A DNA stretch of 64,000 nucleotides from IMG/VR virus record IMGVR_UViG_3300032270_001445, positions 21,239 through 85,238 of that record; one strand, 5' to 3'. How positions within the stretch are numbered: the first letter of the stretch is position 1; each line of letters starts with the position of its first letter. Below are positions 17,464 to 40,979 of the stretch, one piece after another. A program made the translations under genes and the position numbers. Origin of the DNA: a virus. Taxonomy: Duplodnaviria > Caudoviricetes. The notes below the pieces were generated by a model. The model was not told the origin of the DNA, did no database searches, and saw only the letters and a list, made by a program, of their open reading frames with translations.

Positions 17464-17464
17464 A

Positions 17465-18930: not shown

Positions 18931-18940
18931 GGAGGAGTCG

Positions 18941-21248: not shown

Positions 21249-21339
21249 CAATGTCACTTCTCCTTAGGAGACCCGTACCCAAGAGTTATCCTAGTGGCTC
21301 TTGGGTACGGGAACCAGTGATCCTCGCGCGAGGCTCAAG

Positions 21340-21639
21340 ATGAAGCAGGGTCGTATGGTTATAGCCATACAAGAAGACACTGTTCAGATTGTTCCTTTTT
21401 CTACTCTTCGTTATGATGGCACAAGCGAAAAAATTTTTTGTGGGAAGCTTGCGGTAGCGGCTAGTTTGGCTGTTAACCACATACGCCTGCTACCTGACCG
21501 CCGCTACAGGCAACTTATTGCCAGCAGATACGCCCCAGGATATTACCCAGAACTCTGGCAACGCTGGGCGCTTGACGCATGGCATGTCAGTACGCCGATA
21601 GACGAACGGTCCCTTGCAAAGGTGAGGAAGATCAAGTGA
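21340..21639 (+). CDS. Hypothetical protein
   Basis: ORF in operon. Confidence 0.45.
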   Translation: MKQGRMVIAIQEDTVQIVPFSTLRYDGTSEKIFCGKLAVAASLAVNHIRLLPDRRYRQLIASRYAPGYYPELWQRWALDAWHVSTPIDERSLAKVRKIK

Positions 21640-21941
21640 GGGGCAAAGAGATTACTGAGTTCCAGTACCGAGGAGAACCAGTCAAGCTCTACATGGACCG
21701 ATACCCTAGTGGACAAGTTGCTATCATTGCCTACGGCGTCTATGGGGAGCCCTATGGGACCCTCAGCGTCAATCTTGACGACCTGCCACCGGGAGGATCG
21801 TTCTGGGTCAAGGGGTGGAATGAGAACGCAGAGTTTGCTGCGTGTGCATGGGGTAGTGGTGTTTTCGCCAAGGCAGGTACGACACGGATTCCGTCCCCTG
21901 GTGGGGTTATTACTGTAGAGGCTTGGTTTATCAAGCCATAA
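21636..21941 (+). CDS. DUF4313-like protein
   Basis: YPSGQVAIIAY...GEPYGTLSVNL pattern. Confidence 0.5.
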   Translation: MRGKEITEFQYRGEPVKLYMDRYPSGQVAIIAYGVYGEPYGTLSVNLDDLPPGGSFWVKGWNENAEFAACAWGSGVFAKAGTTRIPSPGGVITVEAWFIKP

Positions 21942-21950
21942 GGAGGGAAT

Positions 21951-22349
21951 GTGGACGAACAGACAGTTATTACGAGACCAGTTATCGAACAGATCGACGA
22001 TGTGCTTTACGCTGACGGTTGGGAGGACTGCCTTGTAGGCCATGGGAACATCTTCCACGGCTCGGATGGCCCACTCATTGTCGCCATTTATGATCGGAAT
22101 AAGATCCTCAAGCGCATAATGGACGATGTCATTGAGACGTGCAATGCCAACAATCCTGGCGATACGCACGAGAACTGCTTCCACTATGAGGAGGCAGACG
22201 AATATATCTCCTTCAATATGGAGGGTGCCTTCATCAAGCCAGGCATGCCGGTGTACGCTTCGTTTCAGGCGCACCCAGGCGTAGTCTCCGACTGGAGCAT
22301 CGAGATTGAAGATGGTGGCATCTGTGCCCAGTGCAAGGAGAAGATTTAA
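21951..22349 (+). CDS. Conserved phage hypothetical protein
   Basis: ADGWEDCLVG...IYDRNKIL...EEADEYISFNMEGA pattern; AGGAGG RBS. Confidence 0.65.
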   Translation: MDEQTVITRPVIEQIDDVLYADGWEDCLVGHGNIFHGSDGPLIVAIYDRNKILKRIMDDVIETCNANNPGDTHENCFHYEEADEYISFNMEGAFIKPGMPVYASFQAHPGVVSDWSIEIEDGGICAQCKEKI

Positions 22350-22729
22350 TGTGCCTCGCATGCGACAGCATGGACGCTCGTCTGCACCGCGAACTAGCCG
22401 ATCTCCACGAGGAGCCAGCAGTACCGCAAGAGGAGATTGACGGACTCGTCAACCGCCTCAACCGTATGGCTGGATTCCCTGATGGGCTCAAGGGAAAGAC
22501 CACCCCTGGATTTTTCCGTCTTCTTTCTGACTACGGCGGAACAAGTCTTGTCCGCGTCGTCAATGATGCTGGCGGAGTCCGCGCAGTCATGGGCGGGTAC
22601 CATCCCGCCAAGAACTTTTACTCCGTGCTTCGTGGCTTTGTCATGGGGATGGATGAGTCTTCGCAGGGCCTAGACCATTATCAAGCCGTAGCAGACGGAT
22701 ATAAGGAACGCGGCTATTCCGCGTGGTAG
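22349..22729 (+). CDS. Hypothetical protein
   Basis: TAATG coupling. Confidence 0.55.
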   Translation: MCLACDSMDARLHRELADLHEEPAVPQEEIDGLVNRLNRMAGFPDGLKGKTTPGFFRLLSDYGGTSLVRVVNDAGGVRAVMGGYHPAKNFYSVLRGFVMGMDESSQGLDHYQAVADGYKERGYSAW

Positions 22730-22737
22730 GAGGGGAC

Positions 22738-23169
22738 ATGATCACACAAGATTGTTGCATCTGTGCATGCGTTGGGTGTAGTGAGGGCAACTGCTGCGAC
22801 CACAGCGCAGGGAACCGAGGGGATCTTCCTCTCAGTTTCAGCTCGTACCAGCGGGGGGCCTCCATCACCGCGCGCGGCAATATAACCCTCCCCGACGCCA
22901 AGGGTCGCGCTGCTATTGCAGCCATGGGCCTTGCCGGTGAGTCTGGCGAGCTTATTGACCACCTCAAGAAGTGGGTCGGCCACGGGCACGATCTCGATCG
23001 CACCTACCTACTCATGGAGCTTGGTGATATCCTGTGGTATGTCGCAGAGATTGCGACGGTTGTTGGCATTGACCTTGGCGAGGTCGCCAGGGTGAATGAA
23101 AGAAAGTTGCGCATGCGGTACCCAGCGGGGTTCTCCGTAGAGCGCAGCGTCAATCGGGAGGATGCATGA
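22738..23169 (+). CDS. mazG: MazG-like nucleotide pyrophosphohydrolase
   Basis: GLAGESGELIDHLKK...ELGDILWY...NERKLRMRYP. Confidence 0.88.
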   Translation: MITQDCCICACVGCSEGNCCDHSAGNRGDLPLSFSSYQRGASITARGNITLPDAKGRAAIAAMGLAGESGELIDHLKKWVGHGHDLDRTYLLMELGDILWYVAEIATVVGIDLGEVARVNERKLRMRYPAGFSVERSVNREDA

Positions 23170-23449
23170 AGAGCAAGAGACCAATCAAGTCCAAGGGCGA
23201 TTCAAAGTTCATCTATACCGGTAAGCCAAGCGAACTTAACCGCAGCACATCGTCAGTGTACGCTGGCCTGGTCCTGGTTATCGGTGCGCTGCTGGTCCTC
23301 GCCGCAATTTATCGCGAATATTTCCGATAGTAGGGGGTTGTATGAAGAAAAACCAAGAATTTACTTTGCGCAGTAGGCGTGATGCTCTGGTAATGCAGGT
23401 CATTAGCCTCGTATTGCTGGTGGTATTCCTAAAGGTTGTTGGCTTCTAA
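23166..23449 (+). CDS. Two small single-TM proteins (23166-23330 and 23342-23449)
   Basis: Manual translation; each has one hydrophobic segment. Confidence 0.45.
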
Positions 23450-24189
23450 TGCCGCAGCCACTCGCAAATTTACCGCCGATTTCTTGCTATGTGAGGAAGG
23501 AGTATCTCCGCGACCTTCAGGATGGGCACGGCGAGTTCACTCCTGCCTACTGGGTGACCGTCAAGGCGCTCCGTCACCGTGCGCTGTATGTCGAGGCATT
23601 CTTGCCAGAGTACGGCGCGTTGTACGATAAGTTGCCTATCAGCGCGTTCACCACGAGACCGGAGACCCCAACGCCCGATCTTCCGCTGGGGACGCTCCAG
23701 TTGTGGGATGTTGGGACAAACGCGATCTCCGTTGTGGAGAAGGCGTTCCTCAAGGGGATGCACTGCAAGTTCCGCGACCCAAAGGGTTCGTGGCACCGAG
23801 GCACCTACCTCTTTACGGTTGACTTGGTAGAGGGTGACCCGAACGAGCTTGATACCGGGTATTCGAGACTACCGTCAGAGCACAAGTCGTACAATTTCAT
23901 TAAGATGGATAACGGACAGTTTGGCGCGCAGCCGAACAATCGCATTCTTTGGGATGACGAAGCCCTTGTTCACAGAAATAAGAAGATTCCAGACTTCAGG
24001 GTCAGCACGATAGAGTTCTCAGCAGAGGGTGAGCGATTTGCCCCACTCGGTGACAGCGATAGCTGGACCTACGAGGAGCCAAAATTCATCACCAAGGCGG
24101 ACGACGACGATGCCGCCGCAGAAGCAATGTTCACGAAGCCGATTAACCCAGACAATGTCACAAGCATGGCAAGAGATTTAAAGAAGTAG
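23449..24189 (+). CDS. Conserved phage hypothetical protein
   Basis: PPISCYVRKEYL...GHGEF...LPISAF...AQPNNRILW pattern familiar from aquatic phages. Confidence 0.7.
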   Translation: MPQPLANLPPISCYVRKEYLRDLQDGHGEFTPAYWVTVKALRHRALYVEAFLPEYGALYDKLPISAFTTRPETPTPDLPLGTLQLWDVGTNAISVVEKAFLKGMHCKFRDPKGSWHRGTYLFTVDLVEGDPNELDTGYSRLPSEHKSYNFIKMDNGQFGAQPNNRILWDDEALVHRNKKIPDFRVSTIEFSAEGERFAPLGDSDSWTYEEPKFITKADDDDAAAEAMFTKPINPDNVTSMARDLKK

Positions 24190-24200
24190 GGGGTGTGTAA

Positions 24201-25001
24201 ATGGGGAAGAAGTCAAAGCAGGTAAAGAATCAGCAGGCGCCAAAGCTGCAGTCAAAGATCTCCATCTACGCGGGTGGACCGGTCGCACACGAGATCAATC
24301 CAAGAAACGCCACGGGCCTCATGGAGTTGCAACGAGACGCCGGTAGAAACGGCATCCCGTTTAAGTGGAAGATCATCCACGGATCATCAGTGCTCCCAGA
24401 CGCCCGAAACATTGTCTGCAAGCAATTCCTGGAAAGCGGGTACAGCCACCTCTTCATGGTGGACGCAGATATCGCCTTTTCTGGTTTTGATGTCTTGAGG
24501 GCTATCGCAACGGGTAAGGATATTGTCGGTCTGCCTTGTGCCAAGAGATCAGCAGACTTCGAGCTTGCCGTAGAGGTCATGAGGAAGTTCCCAGAAATAC
24601 CAGCAAAAAACCTTGCTGCGTATATCGGCGGTGTCAACTTCATGCCGCTTGACGAGAACACAAAGCCAGACCTTGACATGACCCTCAAGGTGAAGCACAT
24701 CGGCACTGGCGCCATGATCATCTCGAGAGAGTCGATGCTGAAGTTTGCCAAGGAGTACCCAGAGCGGTATTATCACAACACGATCACTGGTGATCGGCTC
24801 GTTGAATACTTCCGCTTCTGGACAAATCCGGAGACGAAGGAGCAGTGGGGCGAAGACTACGGTTTCTGCCAAGATATGCGAGGAATTGGCATTGACGTCC
24901 ACGCACTCATCGACGCGAAGACCGTGCACTACGGTTCATTTGGATACGAGTGCGACTTCTCAAAGCTCGCATCTCATTATATAACGAAGGAGAAGGTATG
25001 A
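24201..25001 (+). CDS. GT-A-fold glycosyltransferase-like protein
   Basis: ARNIVC...HLFMVDADIAF (DxD), IGTGAMII, GEDYGFC. Confidence 0.7.
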   Translation: MGKKSKQVKNQQAPKLQSKISIYAGGPVAHEINPRNATGLMELQRDAGRNGIPFKWKIIHGSSVLPDARNIVCKQFLESGYSHLFMVDADIAFSGFDVLRAIATGKDIVGLPCAKRSADFELAVEVMRKFPEIPAKNLAAYIGGVNFMPLDENTKPDLDMTLKVKHIGTGAMIISRESMLKFAKEYPERYYHNTITGDRLVEYFRFWTNPETKEQWGEDYGFCQDMRGIGIDVHALIDAKTVHYGSFGYECDFSKLASHYITKEKV

Positions 25002-25297
25002 GCGACTCAAAAGAGGATCTAAAGAAAATTGCCGAGGGCATCTCTGAGCAGCTATCAAAGTTGTCAGCGGAACTCCCAGACGGGGAGCGCCTCCATATGC
25101 TGGAGTTCCTCAGGGAAGCAAACGTGTGGTCTGCATCATCTCAGGTGTTTGACCCAAAGGCGGAAAACTATTTGAACAACCTGGAATATCTTGACGGTGT
25201 GGAGAAGCCAAAGGGTGATTGGGTCACCGTTGGGTACGCTGCAGGAGAGACCATTGCAGAGGCGATTGCCAACCTCGTCGTCAAGAGGAAGTCGTGA
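24998..25297 (+). CDS. Hypothetical protein
   Basis: AAGG RBS, ATGA overlap. Confidence 0.55.
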   Translation: MSDSKEDLKKIAEGISEQLSKLSAELPDGERLHMLEFLREANVWSASSQVFDPKAENYLNNLEYLDGVEKPKGDWVTVGYAAGETIAEAIANLVVKRKS

Positions 25298-25545
25298 GCG
25301 TCCCCTGGAGCAAGTACGCCTCCCTGACTCACGAAGAGGCAGAGTTGAGCCTGTCCAGCGGCGGCTACCTGCTGGCAGCAATCCATAGAGCCTTCGTGGA
25401 CGGAGACTGGATGGCTGTCGCCTATGACAAGAAGGGCAGGAAGTACGCTGCAAAGGGCAGAAATCCTCATGAGGCGGTCTGTAGGCTCGCGTGGGAGCTC
25501 ATGATGCGGTCGTCCAATCAACAGGGCTCTACGGGCCGCAAATAG
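25294..25545 (+). CDS. Hypothetical protein (last gene of the replication operon)
   Basis: GTGA overlap; AAKGRNPHEAVCRLAW. Confidence 0.5.
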   Translation: MSVPWSKYASLTHEEAELSLSSGGYLLAAIHRAFVDGDWMAVAYDKKGRKYAAKGRNPHEAVCRLAWELMMRSSNQQGSTGRK

Positions 25546-25594
25546 GCATTTCCGGGGCTTCTGCAACGCTCTCCGAGAGTGATTATCGAACCGC

Positions 25595-25680
25595 CAACCC
25601 CCACATTGTGAAAAAAAGGTAGGCGTCCCTAGCGCAGGTGGGGAGGGGGGGTCAAAGGGTACACGCGAGGGGTTAGACCC
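25595..25680. other. C-run / A7 / G-run segment at the operon-array boundary (possible genome end or G4)
   Basis: aacccccacattgtgaaaaaaagg...ggtggggagggggggtcaaagggtacacgcgagggg. Confidence 0.35.
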
Positions 25681-25777
25681 GCCCCTCCGGGGCTATCGGT
25701 CGTCCCAAGATGAGGCACGCTCTCGGCGTATTGTTCTTGTACGGGGGACTTCCCCGCGAAGTACAGAGGAGGCAATC

Positions 25778-26071
25778 ATGGACACGATCGGTACAGCAAT
25801 CAAGGCTCTCTTCGTGGGAGTCATCGCAGCCAATCTTCTCGCGTGGCAGCATCTCGTTCTTGGATTCGATAGCCGTTCTATTCAGATGGTGAACCCGATC
25901 GAGATCATCGTAGCGCTCCTCGCAGGAGTCACGGTGTTCCGAGCATTCTACGCATGGACGCACGATACACTCTTCCCGGCGATGGACAGGGTATTCGAGA
26001 AGATCGACGCAATGCGAGAGAAGCGAAAGGCTCGCGTGACTTGCCCATGCGGCAGGCACCACAGCGTCTAG
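25778..26071 (+). CDS. Cassette 1: two-TM membrane protein
   Basis: GGAGG RBS; two hydrophobic helices; CPCGRHH tail. Confidence 0.7.
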   Translation: MDTIGTAIKALFVGVIAANLLAWQHLVLGFDSRSIQMVNPIEIIVALLAGVTVFRAFYAWTHDTLFPAMDRVFEKIDAMREKRKARVTCPCGRHHSV

Positions 26072-26305
26072 CACAGCACCCCACTCACCGCGCGGCGGTG
26101 GGTGGGGTGTTCCAGTCCTCTTCTCTATCTCTCTCTGTTCGATCTCACACACACCTAAGATAACTAACTAACACTAACTAACGTAACCTGACTAAGGTTC
26201 GATTCGGCGCTCCGCGCCTATCGGTGTCACCTGAACTATCTGTCGCTATGGGGCACTATGGACTCACGGGGCAACCGCTCCGTAATAGTAGCAAGGGGGT
26301 ACGCA

Positions 26306-26560
26306 ATGGTAGGAGCACTAGCAGGGTGGAGCACGCGACACGGCGTCGTGTCGCTCCACTATGATATCCGAAACGGCGGCGGTTTCCCAGACACGCTGAC
26401 GTTCGAGCTCGCACGAGTCAATGGCGAATTGGTCGCCAATATTCACAGCGGCGGCTATGCTGCTGCTAGTGATATCAACCTACGCGGTGCTGCTGCCGAG
26501 CAGCGCCTAGTAGACGCTGGTGTCTGGCTAGACTTCCCAGCGTATCTACGTCGAGCGTAG
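26306..26560 (+). CDS. Cassette 2: hypothetical protein
   Basis: AAGGGGG RBS within repeat. Confidence 0.6.
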   Translation: MVGALAGWSTRHGVVSLHYDIRNGGGFPDTLTFELARVNGELVANIHSGGYAAASDINLRGAAAEQRLVDAGVWLDFPAYLRRA

Positions 26561-26788
26561 TCAGCTCGCACGCTTCACCCCGCTCACCGCAATCGTGCGG
26601 TGGGCGGGGTGTTCGTTCTCTCATCTCTATCTCACTGCGTTCGATCTCGCCTGTCCCTAATATAACTAACCGACTAACTAACGTTCGAGACGCCGCTCCG
26701 CGGCTATCGCTATCACCTGAACTACTCTGCTCTATTCCGTATTCTTTGTATGTGAGGCAACCGCTTCACAATAGTATGGAGGTCTGGT

Positions 26789-27076
26789 ATGTGGCATATC
26801 CCGGAGGAAGGGTGCAGACTCACGGTGAAGGGCGACGTCAATGACGTCATCACCGTGTCCTGCAATCTTGATGGTAAAGCAATGGATTATCATTGCGCCG
26901 TCACGCAGCGTGGTCTCTTGATGATGTTCGTCAAGGATCACGGTCATAGCACCGAGTACTATGATGGTCGCAACGCTGTTGGGATTCTAAAGCAGGACCT
27001 AGTATGGGAAACGCTCCCAGACACGTTCCGCTCAATGGTCAATCTATCGGCGGCATCGCTGACGAAGCGACGCTAG
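26789..27076 (+). CDS. Cassette 3: hypothetical protein
   Basis: GGAGG RBS. Confidence 0.7.
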   Translation: MWHIPEEGCRLTVKGDVNDVITVSCNLDGKAMDYHCAVTQRGLLMMFVKDHGHSTEYYDGRNAVGILKQDLVWETLPDTFRSMVNLSAASLTKRR

Positions 27077-27303
27077 TCCAGCCCCCCGCTCACCGCGAAC
27101 GCGCGGTGGGCGGGGTGGTCAATCTCTACTCTCTATCTCACTCTGTTCGATCTCGGCAGTCCCTAATATAACTAACCGACTAACCATAAGGTTCGAGACG
27201 GCGCTCCGCGCCTATCGCCACCACAATGAATGAACTAGGCGATATGCGATTGTAGGTAGGCGACGGACGCGTCGCGTAAGTAGTCATAGCAGAGGAGGTA
27301 AGT

Positions 27304-27591
27304 ATGAGTAAGCACTACGAGCCGCTTCGGTGGGAGGTGCGTATCGGCGCCGTCCTGAACGAAGCAGATAGCGATAGGGTATCGGACTGCATCGTCAGGA
27401 TGCTGGAAGGTATCCGCAAGTCACGCCCTAGCACTTGGATGGAAGATATCCAAGGCGAGTATGCATATACGCTGCTGAACGATGCACTTCGTCCAGCGGG
27501 GTATTGCACTACCGGACGCAACGAAGAGGACGCGTGGATGATCGGCAAGTTGCCGATGGATAGGTGGTCAGCGAACCTGCTGATCGTCTGA
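27304..27591 (+). CDS. Cassette 4: hypothetical protein
   Basis: AGGAGG RBS. Confidence 0.7.
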   Translation: MSKHYEPLRWEVRIGAVLNEADSDRVSDCIVRMLEGIRKSRPSTWMEDIQGEYAYTLLNDALRPAGYCTTGRNEEDAWMIGKLPMDRWSANLLIV

Positions 27592-27826
27592 TTCTACTTC
27601 CCCCAGTCGCGGACGCGCGGCTGGGGGAGTTAGGTTGTCTCTCTCTATCGAACTATGTTCGATCTCGCAACTCCATAATATAACTAACCGACTAACCATA
27701 AGGTTCGAGACGGCGCTCCGCGCCTATCGGCACAACCTGAACTATCCCTCCCCATTGCGTACTCTTCTTGTAGCGGGACGCCGCCGCGATGAATGCGACA
27801 TCGCAATAGTATCAGCAGGAGGCTAT

Positions 27827-28087
27827 ATGAAGGGTAAAGAGCATCCGGCGTTGATGCCGTTTATCGTCGTGGTCGCACGACTCGTTGAGTACTCTATCCC
27901 GATCGCTGCTGAGACAGCAGAAGCGGCGAAAGATATCGCCGAGAAGATGGTCATGGATGGTCATGCTGATGACTACGCCCATGAGTGCGACATCCAAGAG
28001 GATGACGTTAAAGCGAGTGATCCTAGCGATGCGGAGCGCACCGCGTACAGGTTCTTGAACCGGGAGAACGACGAGCACACGTTCTAG
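27827..28087 (+). CDS. Cassette 5: acidic protein, DpnD/PcfM-like motif
   Basis: AGGAGG RBS; EYSIPIAAETAEAAKDIAE. Confidence 0.65.
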   Translation: MKGKEHPALMPFIVVVARLVEYSIPIAAETAEAAKDIAEKMVMDGHADDYAHECDIQEDDVKASDPSDAERTAYRFLNRENDEHTF

Positions 28088-28331
28088 CAGGTAAATCACC
28101 CCCGCCGCAGCGGACGCGCTGCGGCGGGGGTGGTTAGATCACCTCTCTCTATAGAACTTCGTTCTATCTCGAGACGCCCTAATATAACTAACCACCTAAC
28201 TAAGTTCGACTCGCCGCTCCGCGGCTATCGGTACAACCTGACTAAACTTCGCGGTGGGCGTATTCTTCTTGTAGGGGGGACGCTCCCGCGATGAGTGCGA
28301 CATCGCAATAGCAGTTAGCGAGGAGGCTATC

Positions 28332-28619
28332 GTGAAAATGGTAAAGACAATCGGCGACGCGATCGCGCAGTTGCGCGTTCTAGTCTCCGAAGGCACGGCA
28401 CTATACTCGGAGGCGGTCAGTATCGCTAGCCGATCAGATGTCCTGGTGGACCTATTATCAGGGAGCGACCGCGATGCGATGGTTGCTGCTCGCGATGGTG
28501 CGATAGATCGTGCGGCGCGGGTAGCGATTATCAATCGCGCCAACCAACACTCACTCGCTCAGTTAGAGGCTCAGGCAGCAGTCTACGGACTGGACTGGAC
28601 TGGCTACCAGAGCCAGTAG
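28332..28619 (+). CDS. Cassette 6: helical hypothetical protein
   Basis: AGGAGG RBS. Confidence 0.7.
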   Translation: MKMVKTIGDAIAQLRVLVSEGTALYSEAVSIASRSDVLVDLLSGSDRDAMVAARDGAIDRAARVAIINRANQHSLAQLEAQAAVYGLDWTGYQSQ

Positions 28620-28852
28620 TACCGACCACCCTCGTCGCAGCGGACGCGCTGCGGCGGGGGTGGTTAGATCATCTCTCTCTATAGAGAATGGTTCTATCTC
28701 GCCAGCCCATAAGATAACTAACCTAATAACTAACGTTCGATAGGCCGCTCCGCGTCCATCGCCACCACCCTGAATGAGTATCGCGTTGTGGCATTCTTCA
28801 TATGCGGCGGACGCGCCGTATTGTTGTGGTAGTCATAGAGTAGGAGGCAGTT

Positions 28853-29104
28853 ATGAGTCAGTACGGACTAAAGGCAATCGTTAAGGGTAAGGAGCGAAAG
28901 TTCATCTACGGATTCGATCGGGGTATTCCAGAATACTTCTTGACGGATATCACTGATGGTGATGATCCGCAGTGCATCGTTGGCATGCTCGGAGGCGTGT
29001 ACGGCGATAGGATGAACTTGCACGAGAAGATGAACGAACTCGGTCTATGGAAGATGCTCACTGACGATCAGCGCAGCAGAATCCTGATGGATCTTCCGTT
29101 CTGA
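28853..29104 (+). CDS. Cassette 7: hypothetical protein
   Basis: AGGAGG RBS; YGFDRGIPEYF. Confidence 0.7.
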   Translation: MSQYGLKAIVKGKERKFIYGFDRGIPEYFLTDITDGDDPQCIVGMLGGVYGDRMNLHEKMNELGLWKMLTDDQRSRILMDLPF

Positions 29105-29352
29105 ATTTATCACCCCTGCCACGGCGGACGCGCCGCGGCGGGGGTGGTTAGGTCGTTATTCTCTATAGAACTTTGTTCTATCCCGAAACTTCTCAGGATA
29201 ACTAACTGAATAATAACCACTAACTAAGTTCGACTCGCCGCTCCGCGGCTATCGGCTGAACCTGACTAAACTTTGCGAACCGCCTACTCTTCTTGTAGCG
29301 GGACGCCGCCACACTATCGTTGATGGTGTGAATCGCGATAACAGGAGGCGAA

Positions 29353-29601
29353 ATGGAAGCGTTGATGAAACTATTCGCTATGGCATGGATAGCAGAGAAG
29401 CGTTCATGGGAAAATCTGGAAAGATACGAAAACTTTCTTCTTGATCTGGGCAGGGAGCCAATGACGCACCCGTACTACAAAGGGCTTCTGGACCTTTGGA
29501 GTGAATCGCAAAAGGAGACCAAGAGGATCGGCAAGGAACTCCTCAAAGCGTACAGCGAAACGCAGGGCTCCGAATCGTTCTCGGTTCTCTCCGCGAAGTA
29601 G
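29353..29601 (+). CDS. Cassette 8: hypothetical protein
   Basis: AGGAGG RBS. Confidence 0.7.
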   Translation: MEALMKLFAMAWIAEKRSWENLERYENFLLDLGREPMTHPYYKGLLDLWSESQKETKRIGKELLKAYSETQGSESFSVLSAK

Positions 29602-29845
29602 ACCACAACCCCTCATCGCAGCGGACGCGCTGCGGTGGGGGGTTGGTAGATCGCTTCTCTCTATAGAACTTCGTTCTATCCCGAAGATCCATAAACTAAC
29701 TAACTAACTAACTAACTAACCTGGTTCGACTCGACGCTCCGCGTCTATCGGCCTAACATTACTAAACAACGCCGTACGCCTACTCTTCTTGTATCGGGAC
29801 GCCGACGCGTAATGATTGATTGCGCGAATAGTTTAGCAGGAGGGC

Positions 29846-30103
29846 ATGATGACTCTTGAGAATAGCGTGGTTGATGAGACCACGGAAGAGCAAGAAGATA
29901 CGGGTAGGTTTTGTGCTTGGTGTAAGGTATCTGAGCAGGAGACGGACATTCGTCACTCGTGGGACGACCACGAGGGTAATGATGTCTCTTACTTTGAGAA
30001 GAAGACAATCCTAGACCTTTGTAGGGAATGTTTTTACGAGGGTCACGTAGAGTCTGTTATTGACGACATCAAGAAGATTTACGCAGACCTAGCGAAGGGC
30101 TGA
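29846..30103 (+). CDS. Cassette 9: CxxC..CxxC acidic protein
   Basis: AGGAGG RBS; CAWC, CREC. Confidence 0.7.
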   Translation: MMTLENSVVDETTEEQEDTGRFCAWCKVSEQETDIRHSWDDHEGNDVSYFEKKTILDLCRECFYEGHVESVIDDIKKIYADLAKG

Positions 30104-30330
30104 GAGACCACCACCGTCAACCGCGGACGCGCGGTTGGCGGTGGCGGTTAGTTCGTCTCTCTCTATAGAACTTCGTTCTATCCCGCAGATCCCTAAGATA
30201 ACTAACTAACCTCATAACCATAACGTTCTGCCGGTCGCTCCGCGCCCTTCGGCACAACCTAAACTACCTGAGCGATACCGCGATTATGTATGTGCGGGGA
30301 ACACCTCGCGTAATAGTAAGGAGGTATGAA

Positions 30331-30612
30331 ATGGGAAAGCGGCTAAATCGTAATGGGGTCATTGCGGCGATCGCTCGCCTAGATGATTTCACATCGCATA
30401 CAAAGAGTATGCGTGGCGAGTGGCAGGGAGAGATCTACGTGGTGTATTCGTACAACCAGTGGATTGGTCAGACGGACGGCACGCATTGGAATCTAAACGA
30501 TCAGCGATACAGCGTGACGACATCCCGCCACCAGTCATATCTACGCCGTGCAATCAGCGCGCACGCAATCAACACTCAAGAGAGGGAGATCGGTAAGCTG
30601 CTCTCCAGGTAG
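30331..30612 (+). CDS. Cassette 10: conserved phage protein (YSY...YSxTTSRHQ family)
   Basis: AAGGAGG RBS; motif seen. Confidence 0.7.
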   Translation: MGKRLNRNGVIAAIARLDDFTSHTKSMRGEWQGEIYVVYSYNQWIGQTDGTHWNLNDQRYSVTTSRHQSYLRRAISAHAINTQEREIGKLLSR

Positions 30613-30831
30613 TCAATCCACCCGAGCCGCGAAGTCCTGCGGCTCGGGTGGTTAGGTCTCTTCTCTCTATCTCTCTTTGTTCGATCTCGAGACGCCATAA
30701 GATAACTAACTAACTGAGTTCGACTCGACGCTCCGCGTCTATCGGCCTAACATTACTAAACCAACCATCAAGCGTATTGTTCTTGTAGCGGCGGACGCGC
30801 CGCACAATCCAATAGTAGTAGAGGAGGCTTT

Positions 30832-31134
30832 ATGGGAGAGAAAGTAAAGCGCGTGAAGCGCAAAGCAACGGAGTCGCTTGGAGTGATCACGAAACTCCTC
30901 GCGCGCTCCATTGAGCAGCGTGCAGCAGCGGTTGACGCTGTTGATTTCACGCAAGAGCAGATTGCGATAGTCGCAAGAGCAGAGAAGCCCAGCAAGAGCG
31001 TCGTCAAGAAACTGAACGCTGCGCTTGTTGTTGCCAATAGTGCTCTCGCGTACTATGAAGCAAACGTCAAGGAACTTCAGAAGCGTCAGGCTTCTGCTAT
31101 GAAGGCGATTGAGAAGGCTCAAGCGCAAGAGTAG
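30832..31134 (+). CDS. Cassette 11: coiled-coil protein
   Basis: GAGGAGG RBS; Ala/Lys/Glu helical. Confidence 0.7.
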   Translation: MGEKVKRVKRKATESLGVITKLLARSIEQRAAAVDAVDFTQEQIAIVARAEKPSKSVVKKLNAALVVANSALAYYEANVKELQKRQASAMKAIEKAQAQE

Positions 31135-31357
31135 TATCCCCACCCTCATCGCAGCGGACGCGCTGCGGTGGGGGTGGTTAGATCACCTCTCTCTATAGAA
31201 CTTCGTTCTATCCCGGACCGCCTTAATATAACTAACCACCTAACTAACCAGCGTTCGATTACTCGCTCCGCTCGTATCGCAACAACCTAAACTGACCTGA
31301 CCTAAAGCCTATTCTTTGTATGTGAGGCAACCGCCTCACAATAGTAAGGGGGCTAAA

Positions 31358-31642
31358 ATGGCAGTGAAGCAAGTGCCAGAGAAGGTAGTCAGGGACATTG
31401 TTGAGTTCCAGAGTATCCTTGAAGGATTCATCGCGGCACTCAACAAAGGTAGATACTTCGATCACGATAGCCAACAGGCTGTTAGTGATGTGCTGTACCT
31501 TATGGAGAAGCCTTGGAAGTATAAGTTTGAGATGGCTGAGTGGGAGGTTCTTGGATACCCCGACGCTTACAATCCAGACTATGTTAGCGATCTAGAAATT
31601 GACACCACCGACGCAAAGATCTTTTCTTACTTCAGCCGCTAA
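31358..31642 (+). CDS. Cassette 12: hypothetical protein
   Basis: AAGGGGG RBS. Confidence 0.65.
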   Translation: MAVKQVPEKVVRDIVEFQSILEGFIAALNKGRYFDHDSQQAVSDVLYLMEKPWKYKFEMAEWEVLGYPDAYNPDYVSDLEIDTTDAKIFSYFSR

Positions 31643-31851
31643 CGATTCCCCCCGCTCACCGCGAACGCGCGGTGGGCGGGGTGGTCAATCTCTACTCTCT
31701 ATAGAACAAAGTTCTATCCCGCAGATCCCTAAGATAACTAACTAACGTTCCATAGCTCGCTCCGCTCGCTTCGGCAGAACTCTAACAAACTAACAGGAAC
31801 GCGTATTCTTTAGGTGCGGGGCAACAGCCACGCAATAGTAAGGAGGCTAGT

Positions 31852-32091
31852 ATGTCAATAAAGGAGTTCAGGGTAACGGCAACATACGAGACCACTGTTG
31901 AAGTGGATCAAGATTACGAGTGGCAGGTGTGCGACAAGCACAAGCCAGCCGACGATGAGACACCTGCTCAGTGGGATGTTCGCATGGTAGCGATTGAATC
32001 GTGCAGCGATTGCGACGATAAGGCTTACGATGTCGCTTCTGAAGAGGCTTACGGAAAGTTTCCAAACGCCGACGACATTGACATCTCCTAG
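31852..32091 (+). CDS. Cassette 13: acidic Cys-containing protein
   Basis: AAGGAGG RBS. Confidence 0.7.
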   Translation: MSIKEFRVTATYETTVEVDQDYEWQVCDKHKPADDETPAQWDVRMVAIESCSDCDDKAYDVASEEAYGKFPNADDIDIS

Positions 32092-32315
32092 TCGCTAAGG
32101 AGAACCCCCGCTCACCGCAATCGTGCGGTGGGCGGGGTGTTCGTTTCCTTCCCTCTATAGAACTTCGTTCTATCCCGCAACTCCTTAATCTAACTAACCA
32201 CCTAACTAACGTTCGCACGCTCGCTCCGCTCGCTTCGGCCGAACTCTAACAAACTAACGCGTAGGCGTATTCTTTGGGTGCGGGGATTCCCGTGAAGATC
32301 ATAAGGAGGCTTGAA

Positions 32316-32519
32316 ATGGTTGCGTGCGATCAGTGCGGCACGGAGTTCTTCAACGAGTTTGAGCCGCTCTCAACGATCTGCGAATCGTGCAAGGAAGAAG
32401 AATCCGCAGCGGCGGACGCGTATTGGGAGAAGTATCTTGATTGGGTTGATGATACCCATCATCGCGATAGCGATGACGATACTGACCCGCTTATTCAATA
32501 CGAAGACGGCTGGCGATAA
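32316..32519 (+). CDS. Cassette 14: acidic Zn-finger microprotein
   Basis: AAGGAGG RBS; CDQC...CESC. Confidence 0.7.
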   Translation: MVACDQCGTEFFNEFEPLSTICESCKEEESAAADAYWEKYLDWVDDTHHRDSDDDTDPLIQYEDGWR

Positions 32520-32523
32520 ACGA

Positions 32524-32566
32524 TAAAGCCCCAGATTCCCACGAGGGAGTCTGGGGCTTTATTATT
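32524..32566. terminator. Bidirectional terminator where the two arrays converge
   Basis: taaagccccagattccc-acga-gggagtctggggctttattatt. Confidence 0.8.
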
Positions 32567-32631
32567 GAGTTCCAGTCCTAGCAGCCGCGGCTGCTAGGAG
32601 CCTAACGATAATAGCCCCTAGCAGCCGAGGA

Positions 32632-32910
32632 TTATGCGGAGTAGTAATCCAACTCCATCTTCTCCACGAAGTTATCGTCAACTTCAATCTCGCTATATTC
32701 CACAACGAAGCCTTCCCGCGCCATTGCGGTTATGAACAATGGTGCGTCACAATCTTCTTCAAGGTAGACGCTTCCGTTGCCTTCGTATGAGCAGTTGCTC
32801 ACAACGCTGGCGATACCGAGTTGGCGAAGCATAGCCTTCTCCGCTACGAGGTAGCCGTGCCCTGGCGTATTGAACTTCCGCGTGAAGTAGGTTGCCGAGA
32901 TTCCGAACAT
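32632..32910 (-). CDS. Conserved phage protein (PGHGYL...YLEEDCD family)
   Basis: AAGGAGG RBS; motif seen. Confidence 0.75.
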   Translation of the reverse strand: MFGISATYFTRKFNTPGHGYLVAEKAMLRQLGIASVVSNCSYEGNGSVYLEEDCDAPLFITAMAREGFVVEYSEIEVDDNFVEKMELDYYSA

Positions 32911-33038
32911 TGGTGCCTCCTTGCTTCCCTACGGCAACTGCCGCAACGCAATACTACGCGAACTTCTGGCAGGTTGTCAAGCGTTCCATCCTAAGCCACC
33001 GCGGTGGCTTAGGGCTGAACCCTAAACCACCGCGCTCG

Positions 33039-33368
33039 CTACGCGTTCGCGTTCTCTGTCTGTTGTCGCTCGTTCTCTATTGCTTCGTCGGTGTAGTGCT
33101 TCGCGATCTCCCGCCAATCAACGCGCGAGAGTGAGGCGCCGAGCAAATCGGTCACGAGCCCAACCGCCGCCTCTGGTAGCGTGTTGGTCACTTCCTCCTT
33201 GAGCCACTTGCCCATTTCATAGGCTGCGAAGTTTCCGTCGCTGTCGTTGCTTTCTGCGAACGCACGAGCCTGCTCCTCTACTCCGTGGAGGTCTCCGATG
33301 ATCCCCTCACCGAGCCAGAGATTGACGAGCCATGTCTCGTAGTTGCTCCAGCCGTTGTAGTCTGCCAT
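33039..33368 (-). CDS. Conserved phage protein (YNGWSNYETW family)
   Basis: AAGGAGG RBS; motif seen. Confidence 0.75.
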   Translation of the reverse strand: MADYNGWSNYETWLVNLWLGEGIIGDLHGVEEQARAFAESNDSDGNFAAYEMGKWLKEEVTNTLPEAAVGLVTDLLGASLSRVDWREIAKHYTDEAIENERQQTENANA

Positions 33369-33526
33369 TTTTGCCTCCTTATGACCTAGCGGGAAGCCCC
33401 GCAAGGGAATACTAAACGAACTCCTAGCGAACTGTCAAGCGTTCTATTCCAATGTGCCGCGGCACATTGGAGCCTAACAATAAACCCCGCCGAAGCGGGG
33501 CTTATTGTTTCCGCAGCTGCGAAACT

Positions 33527-33934
33527 TTACGCCATCGGATAGTTGCCCAGTTCTAGAAGCGTCTTGATTTCCGCAACCTGCTCATCGCTGAACGCAAGCG
33601 TCTTGCCGTCCTCGTCCTCTGCGGTGAGTACGCAGTTGCCGTAGATTCCGTCAAACACGCCGCCAAGAATCTCATTGCGCAAAGATGTTGCCGCCTGATT
33701 GCGAATCACAGGCTCGTTGTATAGCCCTTCCTCGTCGCACCAAAGCACCACGCTCGTCGCGCCGTACTTACCAGAAGCCGCAACCTCTACCAGGCTCCAC
33801 TCGCCGACTCGGTAGAGTTCGGTGAGCGTGTTGCCGTCATCGTTGAAGTCCACGACCTCAACCCAGTTGAACAGCGCGGGGACTGGCGTAGCAGTCTCAA
33901 ACTTTCCAACTCCGAACTTGATTGCCTTACCCAT
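33527..33934 (-). CDS. DUF3846-like protein
   Basis: LWCDEEGL...NQAATSL...IYGNCVLT. Confidence 0.65.
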   Translation of the reverse strand: MGKAIKFGVGKFETATPVPALFNWVEVVDFNDDGNTLTELYRVGEWSLVEVAASGKYGATSVVLWCDEEGLYNEPVIRNQAATSLRNEILGGVFDGIYGNCVLTAEDEDGKTLAFSDEQVAEIKTLLELGNYPMA

Positions 33935-34054
33935 TTGCTTGCCTCCTTTGCCTTTCATCGGGAAGCCCCGACCTCTGAATCTTACGCGATAAAGTTCCAG
34001 CCTGTCAAGGGGTTCTATCTCAAATGGTCGCGACCATTTGAGGCTGAACAAAAT

Positions 34055-34292
34055 GATAAGGGTCTGACTGGCACCACACCAACCAGACCCTTATCGGCAT
34101 TTCGCTGCCTTTGACGCTTATCCTCTTGCGAGGAGAGGCTTCACCTTCCGGCTGCCTCTTGCGAACGGCGTAGGTGTCGGTTAGGCACCCCCACCGCTCG
34201 TCCTTATCGTCTCGGGTAGTTAGTCTACAACTACCAACCAGCCGCAGCCCCATAAGCCCGCCACTTTCACAGCGGCACCAGAGCGGCTCGTG
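34055..34292 (-). ncRNA. Candidate structured ncRNA occupying a cassette slot
   Basis: Own promoter and terminal hairpin, no AGGAGG-led ORF, several GNRA-type stem-loops. Confidence 0.45.
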
Positions 34293-34377
34293 TGATGATT
34301 CTAAACGAACATCTGCCAGCCGTCAAGCGTTCTATCCCAAATGGCCGCGGCCATTTGGGGCTGAACAATAATAAGAG

Positions 34378-34590
34378 TTATACGCCGCTTCTTACTGCCT
34401 CGTCTAGTCTTGTCGCCGCTTCCGTAATCGTCGCCAGAACTTCGTCGCCAAAGATTTCCGCGAAGCCCGTAGGCTCGGCGGTATGGTCTGCCGCAAGTTT
34501 CTGGAACCGATAGGCTCCGTCATCTTGCTGGTAATAGCGTGCGAAGGTTGTCGTTGCGCCGTTGGTGTGAATCTGCTTCCACTCCGTCAT
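34378..34590 (-). CDS. Hypothetical protein
   Basis: GGAGG RBS at the end of the upstream gene. Confidence 0.6.
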   Translation of the reverse strand: MTEWKQIHTNGATTTFARYYQQDDGAYRFQKLAADHTAEPTGFAEIFGDEVLATITEAATRLDEAVRSGV

Positions 34591-34591
34591 C

Positions 34592-34876
34592 TTATCCCTC
34601 CACTTCATACTTCTCGCCGCCGATTCGCAGCCCTGTGATTGCGTCAAGCGCGATGGTGCGATAGCCCTCGGCGGTAATGTCGTAGACAAAGATGAGGTCT
34701 TTCGCAGCCGCGTCATACGCAGCCTCGCCGCCTTTGAGGTGCTTCTTGACCCCAAGACGCGCCGTCATCTTTCGCAACTCGCCTGTCGTGCGCTTCACGA
34801 AGTCCACGCCAAAGATCGCGCCGTTGCTTGTGCGGATCATCTCTGCCGCCTCTGCCATCTTGATTACCTTGTTCAT
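34592..34876 (-). CDS. SH3/WYL-like small protein
   Basis: VDFVKRTTGELRKM...VYDITAEGYRTI pattern. Confidence 0.55.
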   Translation of the reverse strand: MNKVIKMAEAAEMIRTSNGAIFGVDFVKRTTGELRKMTARLGVKKHLKGGEAAYDAAAKDLIFVYDITAEGYRTIALDAITGLRIGGEKYEVEG

Positions 34877-35024
34877 TTAAGCCTCCTTACTTCTGTACCT
34901 TTCTGGTACAAGATGATTCTAGAACAGACCTATCCAATCCGTCAAGGGGTTCTAGTCCAAAGGGCCGCCGCCCTTTGGAGGCGAACAAAAATACCGCCCG
35001 AAGGCGGCATCTTTGCTTTCTGGA

Positions 35025-35363
35025 CTACTCGGCTGTCTGAAGCGCGATGATCTTGCTGAACTCCAGTTCAGCGTCGCGCTCGTGCTCAAACGCAACGAAG
35101 TCAATGAATCCATCGTTTCGCCAATGGACAACGATGTTGCCGAACTTGTCGTAAGTCCCATCAAGTTCAGTTGAAATGAAATCGTCTGGGACTGCCAGTC
35201 CGTCCATCACATCGCCGTAGATTTCAGCAAACTTCAGATCGTAGCCTTCAAGACGACTCGCAACCCTTTGCTCAACAAGCCAGTCGCCATCGCAACTTCC
35301 CTGAGAGCACTTGAACTTCGTGAAGTCGCCGTTCGTGAGTGAAACCGCCAGAGCCTTGAACAT
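35025..35363 (-). CDS. Acidic hypothetical protein
   Basis: AGGAGG RBS. Confidence 0.7.
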   Translation of the reverse strand: MFKALAVSLTNGDFTKFKCSQGSCDGDWLVEQRVASRLEGYDLKFAEIYGDVMDGLAVPDDFISTELDGTYDKFGNIVVHWRNDGFIDFVAFEHERDAELEFSKIIALQTAE

Positions 35364-35553
35364 TTTAGCCTCCTCTGTTATCCGCCCAGTTGGGCTATGC
35401 CCATTGTAATCAGTAATCTACTCAGCCGTCAAGAGGTTCTATTCCGAGGAGCCGCCGCTCCTCGGAGACGAACATAATAAAGCGGACTAGTTGGGCTGCG
35501 ACTCAACTAGTCCGCTTGTAGTGGATAGGTGGAGGCTTTCTACCTATCCGTAG

Positions 35554-35826
35554 TCATAGTGCCGCCAAGTACGGCAGGCGGCAGTCGTATCCTAGCAGGC
35601 AACTTGATGGCTCGTGATGGACAGGCTCAACCGCCCACTCAAGGCAAGTCCCGCAAGACTCGCCGCACCAGTTCACTTCGTCCCAGTCAAAGACAGGGTG
35701 AAGTGGATTGCCTTCGCTATCAACAGATTCCTCGTCGTTCAGAGCCGTTCCCCACCTTGCCTCGGAGCAGGGTACGCAATGAACAGCAGCCTCGTATTGC
35801 CACGCGATCGGTGTGTGCTCGCTCAT
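35554..35826 (-). CDS. Cys/His-rich acidic protein
   Basis: AGGAGG RBS; HCVPC, CGTC. Confidence 0.7.
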   Translation of the reverse strand: MSEHTPIAWQYEAAVHCVPCSEARWGTALNDEESVDSEGNPLHPVFDWDEVNWCGESCGTCLEWAVEPVHHEPSSCLLGYDCRLPYLAAL

Positions 35827-36019
35827 CTTTGCCTCCTTGTTTCGTCAGAAGTCCTGACTAAGGGATTGTCGCACAGCCGCAACAGCCTGTCAAATGGTTC
35901 CATCGTAGGTAGCCGCCGCTACCTACGCCCGAACATAATAAACTGCTATGGGCGGGTAAGCACCAGCGCGTAAAGCATAAGCGCGCCGAGCATTATGTAG
36001 AACGCTCCCTGCGCGTCCA

Positions 36020-36283
36020 TTAGATCAAATCCGAAAGCGTTGGGACTGCCTCGTAGCAATCGTCGCAAAGATACTCAATGTTCTCGTGGGCGTTCTCGTA
36101 GCCGTTCCAGCCGTAAGGGAAAGAACGCTTCTTGCCCTCAAATGGGCAACGCTTCTCCAATGAGAGAAACTCCTCGCCGTGGCACTCCTGAACGAGCGGG
36201 TGGTCGTGCGTTTCGCACTCGCATTGATCGTAGTAGCAATCGCCGTTGCCACACATCGTCATTGAGCCTTGTAGGTACGCCAT
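36020..36283 (-). CDS. Cys-rich acidic protein
   Basis: AAGGAGG RBS; LCDDCY. Confidence 0.65.
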   Translation of the reverse strand: MAYLQGSMTMCGNGDCYYDQCECETHDHPLVQECHGEEFLSLEKRCPFEGKKRSFPYGWNGYENAHENIEYLCDDCYEAVPTLSDLI

Positions 36284-36397
36284 TGTCGCCTCCTTATTCG
36301 CAGCCCCAAATCGGGGTAGCCCCATTGTAAATCCATCGCGCCAGATTCGTCAAGCGTTCTAATCCAAGGAGCGGCGGCTCCTTGGAGCTGAACCTAA

Positions 36398-36630
36398 TAA
36401 AGAAGCCTCTTGGAACCCGTCGGTCCCAAGAGGCTTCTTTCGGATTATTCATTGGGGGCTAATCACTTCCCCCAACTCCTTTTCCTTCCGCTCCGCCGAT
36501 CCATTGGCACCTAGCGGTCATCGTCCTTTGCGTCTCGTCTACCCGCGCTTTATTGGTGGCGGCAGACCTGCTCGCTCGTCCACGAGTCTCACCTAGTCGG
36601 AGTTGCTTCATCTAGAATCGCTTCCGACAA
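36398..36630 (-). ncRNA. Second candidate ncRNA cassette (GGA-rich)
   Basis: Promoter TTGACA-18-TAGTAT, strong terminator 36398-36440, only an RBS-less 50-codon ORF. Confidence 0.4.
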
Positions 36631-36772
36631 GACCATACTAAGCGATGATTATACGACCTGTCAAGCCCCTAGTTTCAGTTCTATCCCAAGAGGCCGCCGC
36701 CTCTTGGGGCAGAACATAATAAATAAGCCACCCCCGGCGGGGTGGCTTATTTACTTTGGATTCTGCTCTAAA

Positions 36773-40970: not shown

Positions 40971-40979
40971 AGAGCCTCC

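Follow-up and report, generated by a model that had tools for sequence, protein, structure and literature searches.

A tandem array of small ORFan genes in an uncultured tailed phage, probably organised as shuffled, self-contained expression cassettes

Why should a phage carry a row of small, mostly unrelated genes at an almost fixed interval, each behind a copy of the same elaborate spacer? The row in question lies in a 64,000-nucleotide (nt) stretch of tailed-phage DNA, here called the window, which comprises bases 21239-85238 of the record IMGVR_UViG_3300032270_001445, a single contig of 85,238 base pairs (bp) that has terminal repeats and is rated 100% complete. In the window, 14 plus-strand open reading frames (ORFs), each led by a Shine-Dalgarno sequence and encoding 67-100 amino acids (aa; 204-303 nt including the stop codon), alternate with conserved spacers of 209-248 nt. 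We conclude that the array is probably a hyperplastic block of auxiliary ORFans in a host-dependent tailed phage, built as tandem self-contained expression cassettes whose proposed workings are set out below.

The original prediction for this DNA had described 14 mini-genes with conserved spacers, of which the first is partial, and the ORF and spacer coordinates confirm this to the base; the first spacer lacks the modules called H1, H2 and TAAKATAACTAAC below. All 13 of the predicted loop-to-loop distances were reproduced exactly when measured between the heptamers of the hairpin H3 (525, 486, 508, 512, 501, 531, 493, 496, 501, 493, 535, 494 and 464 nt), and repeat families D1-D8 are spaced ~500 nt apart. 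The statement that nearly half of the DNA is regulatory agrees with a spacer share of ~46% of the array, and the long identical blocks said to be common to units 4/5, 9/11 and 13/14 are visible in the spacer alignment. The array and its ORFs (with the ratio of non-synonymous to synonymous substitution, dN/dS, for some) are as follows.

25547..32566, plus strand: whole array of 14 cassettes, opening with the partial first spacer and ending with the bidirectional terminator
25778..26071, plus strand: ORF 1, 97 aa, hydrophobic, family w1, dN/dS 0.36-0.43
26306..26560, plus strand: ORF 2, 84 aa, dN/dS 0.17-0.28
26789..27076, plus strand: ORF 3, 95 aa
27304..27591, plus strand: ORF 4, 95 aa
27827..28087, plus strand: ORF 5, 86 aa
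28332..28619, plus strand: ORF 6, 95 aa, GTG start, dN/dS 0.14
28853..29104, plus strand: ORF 7, 83 aa
29353..29601, plus strand: ORF 8, 82 aa, the most widespread family, often with two copies per array
29846..30103, plus strand: ORF 9, 85 aa, Cys-rich
30331..30612, plus strand: ORF 10, 93 aa, the sole cassette with a family match (phrog_32689, function unknown)
30832..31134, plus strand: ORF 11, 100 aa, dN/dS 0.08-0.14
31358..31642, plus strand: ORF 12, 94 aa
31852..32091, plus strand: ORF 13, 79 aa
32316..32519, plus strand: ORF 14, 67 aa, CxxC zinc-ribbon-like, the final cassette of several arrays
32527..32566, both strands: bidirectional intrinsic terminator with a GC stem and T-runs on both strands, closing the plus array and a convergent minus-strand array

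Arrays of the same kind were found in IMGVR_UViG_3300016263_001265 (14 units), IMGVR_UViG_3300032245_001466 (12 units), a 33-kb fragment (7 units) and scaffold_65 of ena:ERZ28593313 (15 units), and in 12 of 13 metagenome fragments, the 13th giving no unit with the unit pattern that was used. The 102 cassette ORFs of all arrays form 24 BLAST families. The mini-genes had been predicted to be unrelated, and for the most part they are (24-25 families by BLAST); some are nevertheless related, as hhalign on a first set of 25 families merged five pairs or groups and left ~20. Tandem duplication followed by divergence was considered as the source of the fixed period and mostly rejected, given these ~20 unrelated folds. 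In Pfam and PHROGs all of the cassette families are ORFans save for the one match of unknown function. Their dN/dS values run from 0.03 to 0.62, and the cassettes are therefore real genes under purifying selection; judged from context only, host takeover or anti-defence is the likeliest role of the proteins.

How the cassettes came to be arranged is indicated by their order in the relatives. Written as window ORF numbers, with x1-x8 for families outside the window array, the order is 1 to 14 sequentially in the window; 1 2 3 4 5 5 6 7 8 x4 10 13 11 13 x8 in ERZ28593313; 1 3 5 2 5 x1 4 8 7 9 8 10 11 13 in the first of the two IMG/VR genomes named above; and x2 2 x3 4 x1 5 8 x4 x5 x6 x4 14 in the second. 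Examples from the fragments are x1 8 3 x5 x4 12 and 12 x6 8 14. Across the five genomes and the 12 fragments, cassette order, copy number and content thus differ, with cassettes reordered, duplicated, lost and replaced. Identical gene order and content in relatives had been named as the result that would speak against shuffling, and the relatives that we looked at differ in both. The precedent suggested at the outset, the PeSL promoter-stem-loop repeats of T4-type phages, proved apt, since here too the scaffold is kept while the ORFs turn over.

The positions of the crossovers could be read from comparisons between arrays. Identity in the H1 region, which lies just behind each gene, is 0.72 when the upstream family is common to the two units as against a baseline of 0.60, and the 5' untranslated region (UTR) shows slightly higher identity between units that have the downstream family in common, while the conserved core has an identity of 0.71-0.75 in every class. 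Because H1 tracks the upstream gene and the core is equally alike everywhere, the crossovers map to the core, as plain homologous recombination predicts. No tyrosine recombinase (PF00589) was detected in the complete genome, with a control that was positive in 14/14 genomes, so that the absence of a recombinase already remarked for the window extends to the whole phage. Judged from these alignments, the shuffling is PeSL-like and recombinational and not site-specific capture. We propose that cassettes would be shuffled by ordinary homologous recombination within the cores, with no dedicated recombinase, which is also the mechanism proposed for recombination at the PmSL/PeSL repeats of T4-like phages (PMC4122927).

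The likeness to PeSL and PmSL (PMC2839356; PMC4122927) extends to the make-up of the repeats: in both, a composite of stem-loop, promoter and Shine-Dalgarno sequence stands before small, variable ORFans in hyperplastic regions, and insertions, deletions, replacements and displacements that distinguish relatives fall at the repeats. The present array differs in its ~235-nt repeat with four hairpins and three GTTxGA boxes, which makes nearly half of the array spacer, in its 14-15 strictly tandem units, whose period varies by just 4.5%, in a promoter that is not near-consensus sigma70, and in residing in a phage that is not T4-like and whose family is metagenome-only. Integrons also have co-oriented, small, unrelated ORFs with structured repeats between them and an order that varies among relatives, but here there is no integrase and no attC architecture, and each cassette has its own promoter and ribosome-binding site. 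An integron identity was rejected, PF00589 being absent from the complete genome.

The regular period had suggested other origins. Over 78 units it is 518 +/- 23 bp (coefficient of variation, CV, 4.5%), with ORFs of 281 +/- 31 nt (93 +/- 10 aa; 71-114 aa) and spacers of 238 +/- 19 nt; the variances of the parts sum to 1308, compared with 535 for the period itself (permutation P < 1/20000). ORF length is correlated with the UTR (r = -0.53) and with the stop-to-box distance (r = -0.52) but not with the (TAAC)n linker (r = 0.01), the sole freely variable linker, which does not compensate. Active length compensation was therefore rejected, as the correlation arises at the ORF edges only, from ORF ends that slide; the pattern looks like ORF ends sliding inside a slot. 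The predicted fixed length constraint is thus real as regards the period, whereas compensation between ORF and spacer is confined to the ORF edges. The constraint itself is real and its cause is unexplained: ~20 unrelated families in the plus arrays all encode 71-114 aa, compared with 77-378 aa (151 +/- 80 aa) in the minus array. As speculation, the period could reflect looping of the DNA between cores that are bound by protein, for which ~500 bp would be close to the optimum.

Two uses of this regularity had been put forward: capture that measures cassette size, which we took in a site-specific, integron-like form, and evenly spaced loading sites, for example for transcription-driven DNA entry. 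The narrow period would suit either, and words like GTTRRRY and RYYYAAC can be read in the spacers. However, size-measured capture has neither an enzyme nor an attC-like site behind it, the crossovers are spread across the homologous core, the linker does not adjust to ORF length, and each cassette has expression signals of its own; entry driven by transcription finds no phage RNA polymerase encoded to drive it. We regard both ideas as exceedingly unlikely.

What each cassette carries was determined from an alignment of 43 units from four genomes, to which the unit counts below refer. The spacer modules are, in order, H1, the word GGTTAG/GGTCGA, CTCTCTAT, an optional H2, P_A, (TAAC)n, P_B, AACCTRAAC, yATTmT, H4 and the Shine-Dalgarno sequence. 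AACCTRAAC is followed by 17 nt, yATTmT, 6-7 nt, H4 (a 4-8-bp hairpin), AATAGTA, GGAGG and the start codon. A unit of ~520 bp can thus be read as core, H4, strong Shine-Dalgarno sequence, a gene of 67-114 aa, and H1, the cores being ~70-75% alike and containing a GTTCGA box with the -10-like TAAKATAACTAAC, then the (TAAC)n linker, then another GTTCGA box together with H3. Unit 6 serves as the example.

28094..28135, plus strand: H1, a 13-19-bp GC-rich hairpin directly 3' of the stop codon, with no proper U-tract after it
28151..28167, no strand assigned: H2, palindrome ATAGAAC-TTC-GTTCTAT
28161..28192, plus strand: P_A, GTTCKATCYCG, 8 nt, TAAKATAACTAAC
28193..28203, plus strand: (TAAC)n linker
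28204..28230, minus strand: P_B, GTTCGA, 3 nt, GCCGC-TCC-GCGGC hairpin (H3), TATCG
28238..28266, plus strand: P_C, candidate core promoter, CTGACT, 17 nt, TATTCT
28274..28287, plus strand: H4, 5' UTR hairpin that begins 6-7 nt past the -10-like hexamer
28320..28334, plus strand: Shine-Dalgarno GAGGAGG and start codon

The 7-bp palindrome H2 is present in 15/43 units. P_A (GTTCKATCYCG-N8-TAAKATAACTAAC) has a fixed spacing with no indel in 43/43 units, and its conservation extends well beyond a -10 hexamer, ATAACTAAC being nearly invariant. The linker, 9-45 nt long across units, has stop codons in all three frames. P_B has the consensus GTTCGA-N3-[5-bp stem, TCC loop]-TAWCR, and neither the P_A nor the P_B motif has any further occurrence elsewhere in the genome. 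Two other functions were considered for parts of the spacer: a Rho-loading site in the C-rich linker had only weak support (C/G ratio 1.95) and conflicts with the strict spacing of the motifs, and a sigma54 promoter in the UTR stretch GTGGCA..TGC was rejected, as the GG-to-GC spacing is 12 nt and not 10, and the window units lack the GG.

The hairpins were then assigned to the RNA or the DNA level. That their stems covary had been predicted, and this was borne out: with the structure held fixed, 91.7% of cells in the 43 spacers are paired compared with 76.4% in shuffles, and 80 cells are changed on both sides compared with 26 (each 0/500 shuffles), while controls in which the partners were slid gave at most 55.7% pairing. 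RNAalifold recovers H1 and H3, with compensatory changes at 11/13 predicted pairs. For H1 we counted 617 Watson-Crick pairs, 67 G.U pairs on the plus strand as against 4 on the minus, a plus-strand RNA fold 5.8 kcal/mol more stable than that of the minus strand, and compensatory changes at 8/9 pairs; H4, where every unit folds, has 38 G.U pairs on the plus strand as against 15 on the minus. Because the G.U pairs are biased to the plus strand, H1 and H4 are RNA-level structures, acting in the transcript. An intrinsic-terminator scan passed 2/13 H1 hairpins; H1 fails the U-tract criterion, unlike the terminal terminator and those of the minus array. Rfam and ARAGORN found just two tRNAs in the window, both outside the array, and no known RNA family or tRNA-like element in the array.

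H3 behaves differently, and its copies in the window are located as follows.

25684..32229, plus strand: the 14 H3 hairpins, each with a 5-bp stem and an invariant TCC loop, and with GTTCGA (GTTAGA in unit 1) 3 nt upstream
25684, 26209, 26695, 27203, 27715, 28216, 28747, 29240, 29736, 30237, 30730, 31265, 31759 and 32223, plus strand: starts of the H3 heptamers

The heptamer is GCTCCGC in 13/14 window units and 42/43 aligned units, unit 1 having CCTCCGG. The full 5-bp stem is present in 32/43 units; 7/43 lose pairs 3-4 and 4/43 have a single mismatch at pair 4, the seven being of a CTCGC-TCC-GCTCG class with a tandem CGAG/CGAG context. Compensatory changes occur at pairs 2, 4 and 5 (3/5 pairs). 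There is no G.T or A.C at any of the five stem pairs in the 43 units, and all of the mismatches are pyrimidine-pyrimidine on the plus strand, i.e. G.A on the minus strand. DNA folding favoured the minus strand in each case tested (-6.0 vs -5.6, -4.5 vs -2.2 and -1.6 vs -0.9 kcal/mol for minus vs plus), where the H3 loop reads C-GGA-G and the commonest H2 loop would read C-GAA-G. Because wobble pairs are absent, mismatches are G.A on the minus strand and the minus-strand DNA fold is the stabler, we take H3 to behave as a hairpin at the DNA level, with a preference for the minus strand.

These results bear on the possibility that the array is read as a single polycistronic transcript from upstream, with the spacers as RNA processing or stability sites like the RNase III sites of T7 early genes. 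The RNA-level structures of H1 and H4 would fit this, as would the lack of a U-tract at H1 and the presence of a canonical terminator at the array end only. The lack of an RNA signature in H3, modules at fixed spacing that would be unexpected for processing sites, and a conserved -10-like hexamer with promoter geometry all argue the other way, and we consider a single transcript of this kind very unlikely. In the cassette scheme that we favour, transcripts probably read through H1 in part, as it lacks a U-tract, and end at the terminal terminator, and H1 and H4 probably protect the RNA ends.

Where transcription of each cassette would start is suggested by a sister array on the minus strand (window 32569-42830), in which ~16 units, convergent with the plus array, carry genes of 77-378 aa. 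A minus unit has, in order, a U-tract terminator, TTATTA-GGTTCG, a 10-bp perfect palindrome, ATAGAAC, TTGACA-17/18-TAnnAT, six nt, a 5' hairpin and AAGGAGG; the palindrome arms vary by copy, and their GGCGG/CCGCC centre flips orientation. Common to both arrays are an A/T-rich tract, GGTTCG, an inverted repeat with a variable stem, a promoter, a 5' hairpin, AAGGAGG and a small gene, and the hairpin GCGGCAGTTGCCGT is present in both types (in a relative's plus array and the window's minus array). The minus array differs in having consensus promoters and U-tract terminators of the canonical kind, in carrying 10-bp palindromes where the plus array has the TCC mini-hairpin, in lacking the TAAKATAACTAAC module, and in its widely varying gene sizes.

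When the two arrays are aligned on the 5' hairpin, the yATTmT of P_C falls exactly at the minus-array -10 position, and its distance to the 5' hairpin and Shine-Dalgarno sequence is that of the minus-array consensus promoters. In yATTmT, A2 is conserved in 43/43 units, T4 in 41/43 and T6 in 43/43, with a 17-nt spacer in 42/43 to weak -35-like hexamers (CTGACT/CTGAAC/CTAAAC). Because the geometry matches at the 5' hairpin, the plus units can be read as the same blueprint with a weak P_C, which is likeliest a weak sigma70-type promoter. We propose that a host sigma70-type polymerase would transcribe each unit from CTnAmy, 17 nt, yATTmT, 6-7 nt and H4. As the -35 is weak, these promoters would depend on an upstream element, which may be the GTTCGA box plus H3 at about -70 to -48, in the place of the GGTTCG and palindrome of the minus array. 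Such a placement of P_C would put H3 itself at about -50 to -60, where it would be an upstream element that supercoiling could extrude.

P_A could instead be the promoter, with TAAKAT as a sigma70 -10 and the GTTCKATCYCG box (about -31 to -21) binding a phage activator in the style of the T4 Mot box and PmSL, in which case H3 would be an operator or part of the 5' UTR. A2 of TAAKAT is nearly invariant and T6 invariant, no indel separates box from hexamer in the 43 units, the minus array has TAAGAT among its -10 hexamers, PmSL offers a precedent (PMC4122927), and the phage encodes a 150-aa helix-turn-helix (HTH) regulator at 51632-52084. However, the near-invariance of ATAACTAAC takes the conservation well past a -10 hexamer, the module is missing from unit 1 in 3/3 genomes examined, a transcribed H3 should show RNA-type G.U pairs and has none, and the implied 5' UTR would be 150-175 nt long compared with ~50 nt in the sister array. 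We think this assignment of the promoter unlikely.

H3 also resembles a promoter of phage N4. In N4 (EF056009), P2 and P3 have GCTCCGC between inverted repeats and a G eight nt past the heptamer. In the window, both the heptamer and the distance to the purine equal these: the last G of the unit 6 P_B lies 8 nt past the heptamer, at the same place as the N4 +1, and a purine (G or A) is found at this position in 43/43 units. The N4 promoter hairpin is described with a -12A/-11G/-10G loop, -9C and -8G, its extrusion as a small hairpin at physiological superhelicity needs a loop 5'G, a loop 3'A and a C:G closing pair, and such a mini-hairpin inside a promoter silences that promoter in a gyrase-dependent way (PMC4496689). 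The template-strand form of H3 has all three extrusion features. What it has in common with the early promoters of N4 (P1-P3) and LUZ7 is the non-template heptamer GCTCCGC (template GCGGAGC), a stem of at least 5 bp with covarying outer pairs that are free to vary, a 3-nt loop, a purine 11 nt from the loop centre, and the loop and closing-pair rule for extrusion under supercoiling (PMC4496689; PMC9163698). It differs in the absence of vRNAP (the N4 virion RNA polymerase), RNAPII, gp1 and gp2 homologues, in 14 hairpin copies as against 3-9, in a weakened stem in 7/43 units, and in having GTTCGA before the hairpin and a sigma70-like core promoter ~12 nt after it.

The polymerase that defines N4 promoters was sought in the complete genome. 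In six frames, PF00940, phrog_2206 (N4 vRNAP), phrog_414 and N4 mini-vRNAP were all negative, phmmer --max found no homologues of N4 gp1, gp2, gp15, gp16 or the single-stranded DNA-binding protein (SSB), and the motifs Rx3Kx7YG and DxDGD did not occur. The phage encodes two giant proteins, between which DxDxD occurs once, in the 3493-aa protein, where it is not conserved among the homologues. This protein, although of N4 vRNAP size, was rejected as a hidden polymerase: it carries the TMP_3 domain of Pfam, every homologue is a tape measure, a PDB profile search was empty, its protein-language-model (Atlas) features are tape-measure-like, and it lacks motif B and DxDGD. The 2417-aa protein was likewise rejected, having a Peptidase_S74 fibre chaperone domain and no DxDxD. 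For a phage sigma factor, no region 2 was found in the genome, and region-4-like HTHs only in a TerS-like protein and the 150-aa regulator.

The physical resemblance of H3 to the N4 promoter hairpin stands at the level of sequence; membership of the N4 promoter family fails because the defining polymerase is absent from the complete genome. H3 could still be a true N4-type single-stranded hairpin promoter if an unrecognisable polymerase, or a host enzyme with a phage adaptor, read the extruded template hairpin. Gyrase would then drive extrusion, transcription would start at the purine 8 nt past the heptamer, and each cassette would be an early transcription unit. The identity with N4 P2/P3 in heptamer, covarying inverted repeats and position of the G, the purine in every unit, the presence of the hairpin in unit 1, which has no P_A, the preference of mismatches and DNA folding for the template strand, and an SSB gene called in a relative's replication module would all accord with such a promoter. 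The profile, phmmer and motif searches for a T7-like or N4-like polymerase are against it, as is the identification of the 3493-aa protein as a tape measure, and unit 1 alters the -14/-8 pair, the template-strand -8G being contacted by N4 vRNAP. We give this an outside chance. We prefer to read H3 as a DNA hairpin whose template form C-GGA-G would be the N4 motif that lets a 5-bp hairpin extrude at physiological supercoiling, and which may serve the host polymerase as an upstream switch dependent on supercoiling or on a factor, convergent with N4.

Several observations weigh against the scheme of host-read, recombining cassettes. Homologous recombination leaves the narrow cassette size unexplained. 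The -35-like hexamer matches TTGACA at 1-4 of 6 positions (2 in most units), and a consensus promoter scan called no site in any plus-array spacer, its two plus-strand calls, at 31109 (in ORF 11) and 32536 (in the terminal terminator), not being cassette promoters. P_C was assigned by positional homology only, and the host promoter rules were taken from the minus array alone. The strictly conserved P_A is without a defined role in the scheme. Finally, the 7/43 units that lose two stem pairs retain the heptamer, and sequence-specific reading of GCTCCGC, beyond hairpin formation, may therefore matter.

The remainder of the genome is that of a tailed phage. Its large terminase has a best identity of 28% to any cultured phage, and the array DNA has no match to cultured phages at the DNA level; by these comparisons the phage is without a close cultured relative, in a family known from metagenomes only. 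Recognised gene products include the portal and major head proteins, the large terminase and a protease-scaffold fusion; an exonuclease and a PD-(D/E)XK nuclease; a replication initiator as well as a DnaC-like loader; MazG; two ParB-N proteins; and sugar-modifying enzymes. A tape-measure gene is present and replication is host-dependent. Features outside the array are given here.

Genome 8796-19277: 3493-aa protein, TMP_3 domain in the centre, C-terminus of tape-measure type
Genome 19278-26531 (window up to 5293): 2417-aa fibre, chaperone domain Peptidase_S74, directly after the 3493-aa gene
Window 45184-45259, minus strand: tRNA-Ile(TAT)
Window 51525-51600, minus strand: tRNA-Arg(TCT)

If the 3493-aa protein is a true tape measure, the tail would be ~0.5 um long; its homologues are 3470-3770 aa and occur in 80-92-kb metagenomic phages. 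The 150-aa protein (window 51632-52084, minus strand) has a weak sigma-region-4-like HTH (PF08281, E = 0.004), also matches phrog_66 'excisionase and transcriptional regulator', and is a candidate regulator of the GTTCGA boxes. A 627-aa ORF (window 11126-13009, minus strand) combines head-maturation-protease matches at aa 3-199 with phrog_3636 'DNA binding protein' at aa 224-362, and a 125-aa ORF (window 20770-21147, plus strand) matches in position a relative's gene call with PF00436 (SSB). Related records flag the major head protein's orthologue as PF17236 (SU10_MCP). The ERZ28593313 scaffold (92.5 kb) is a mosaic, with a tape measure ~38% identical over parts only and a region upstream of cassette 1 that equals the window nearly base for base.

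The array is among the cleanest natural examples of gene shuffling via common regulatory cassettes, with ~100 cassettes of ~24 ORFan families on one scaffold in uncultured freshwater-type phages. The tight unit size of ~520 bp across unrelated proteins is unexplained and testable. One genome holds two versions of the cassette blueprint, consensus promoters with 10-bp palindromes in one and weak promoters with a mini-hairpin in the other. If H3 does gate host-polymerase promoters, it would show a DNA-structure switch in a new role; if H3 is itself the promoter, it would mean N4-style transcription without an N4-style polymerase, in a lineage outside Schitoviridae, and the 14 units of even size would form a row of early transcription units gated by supercoiling. 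The array also offers a ready catalogue of candidate host-takeover and anti-defence proteins, each with a defined expression module.

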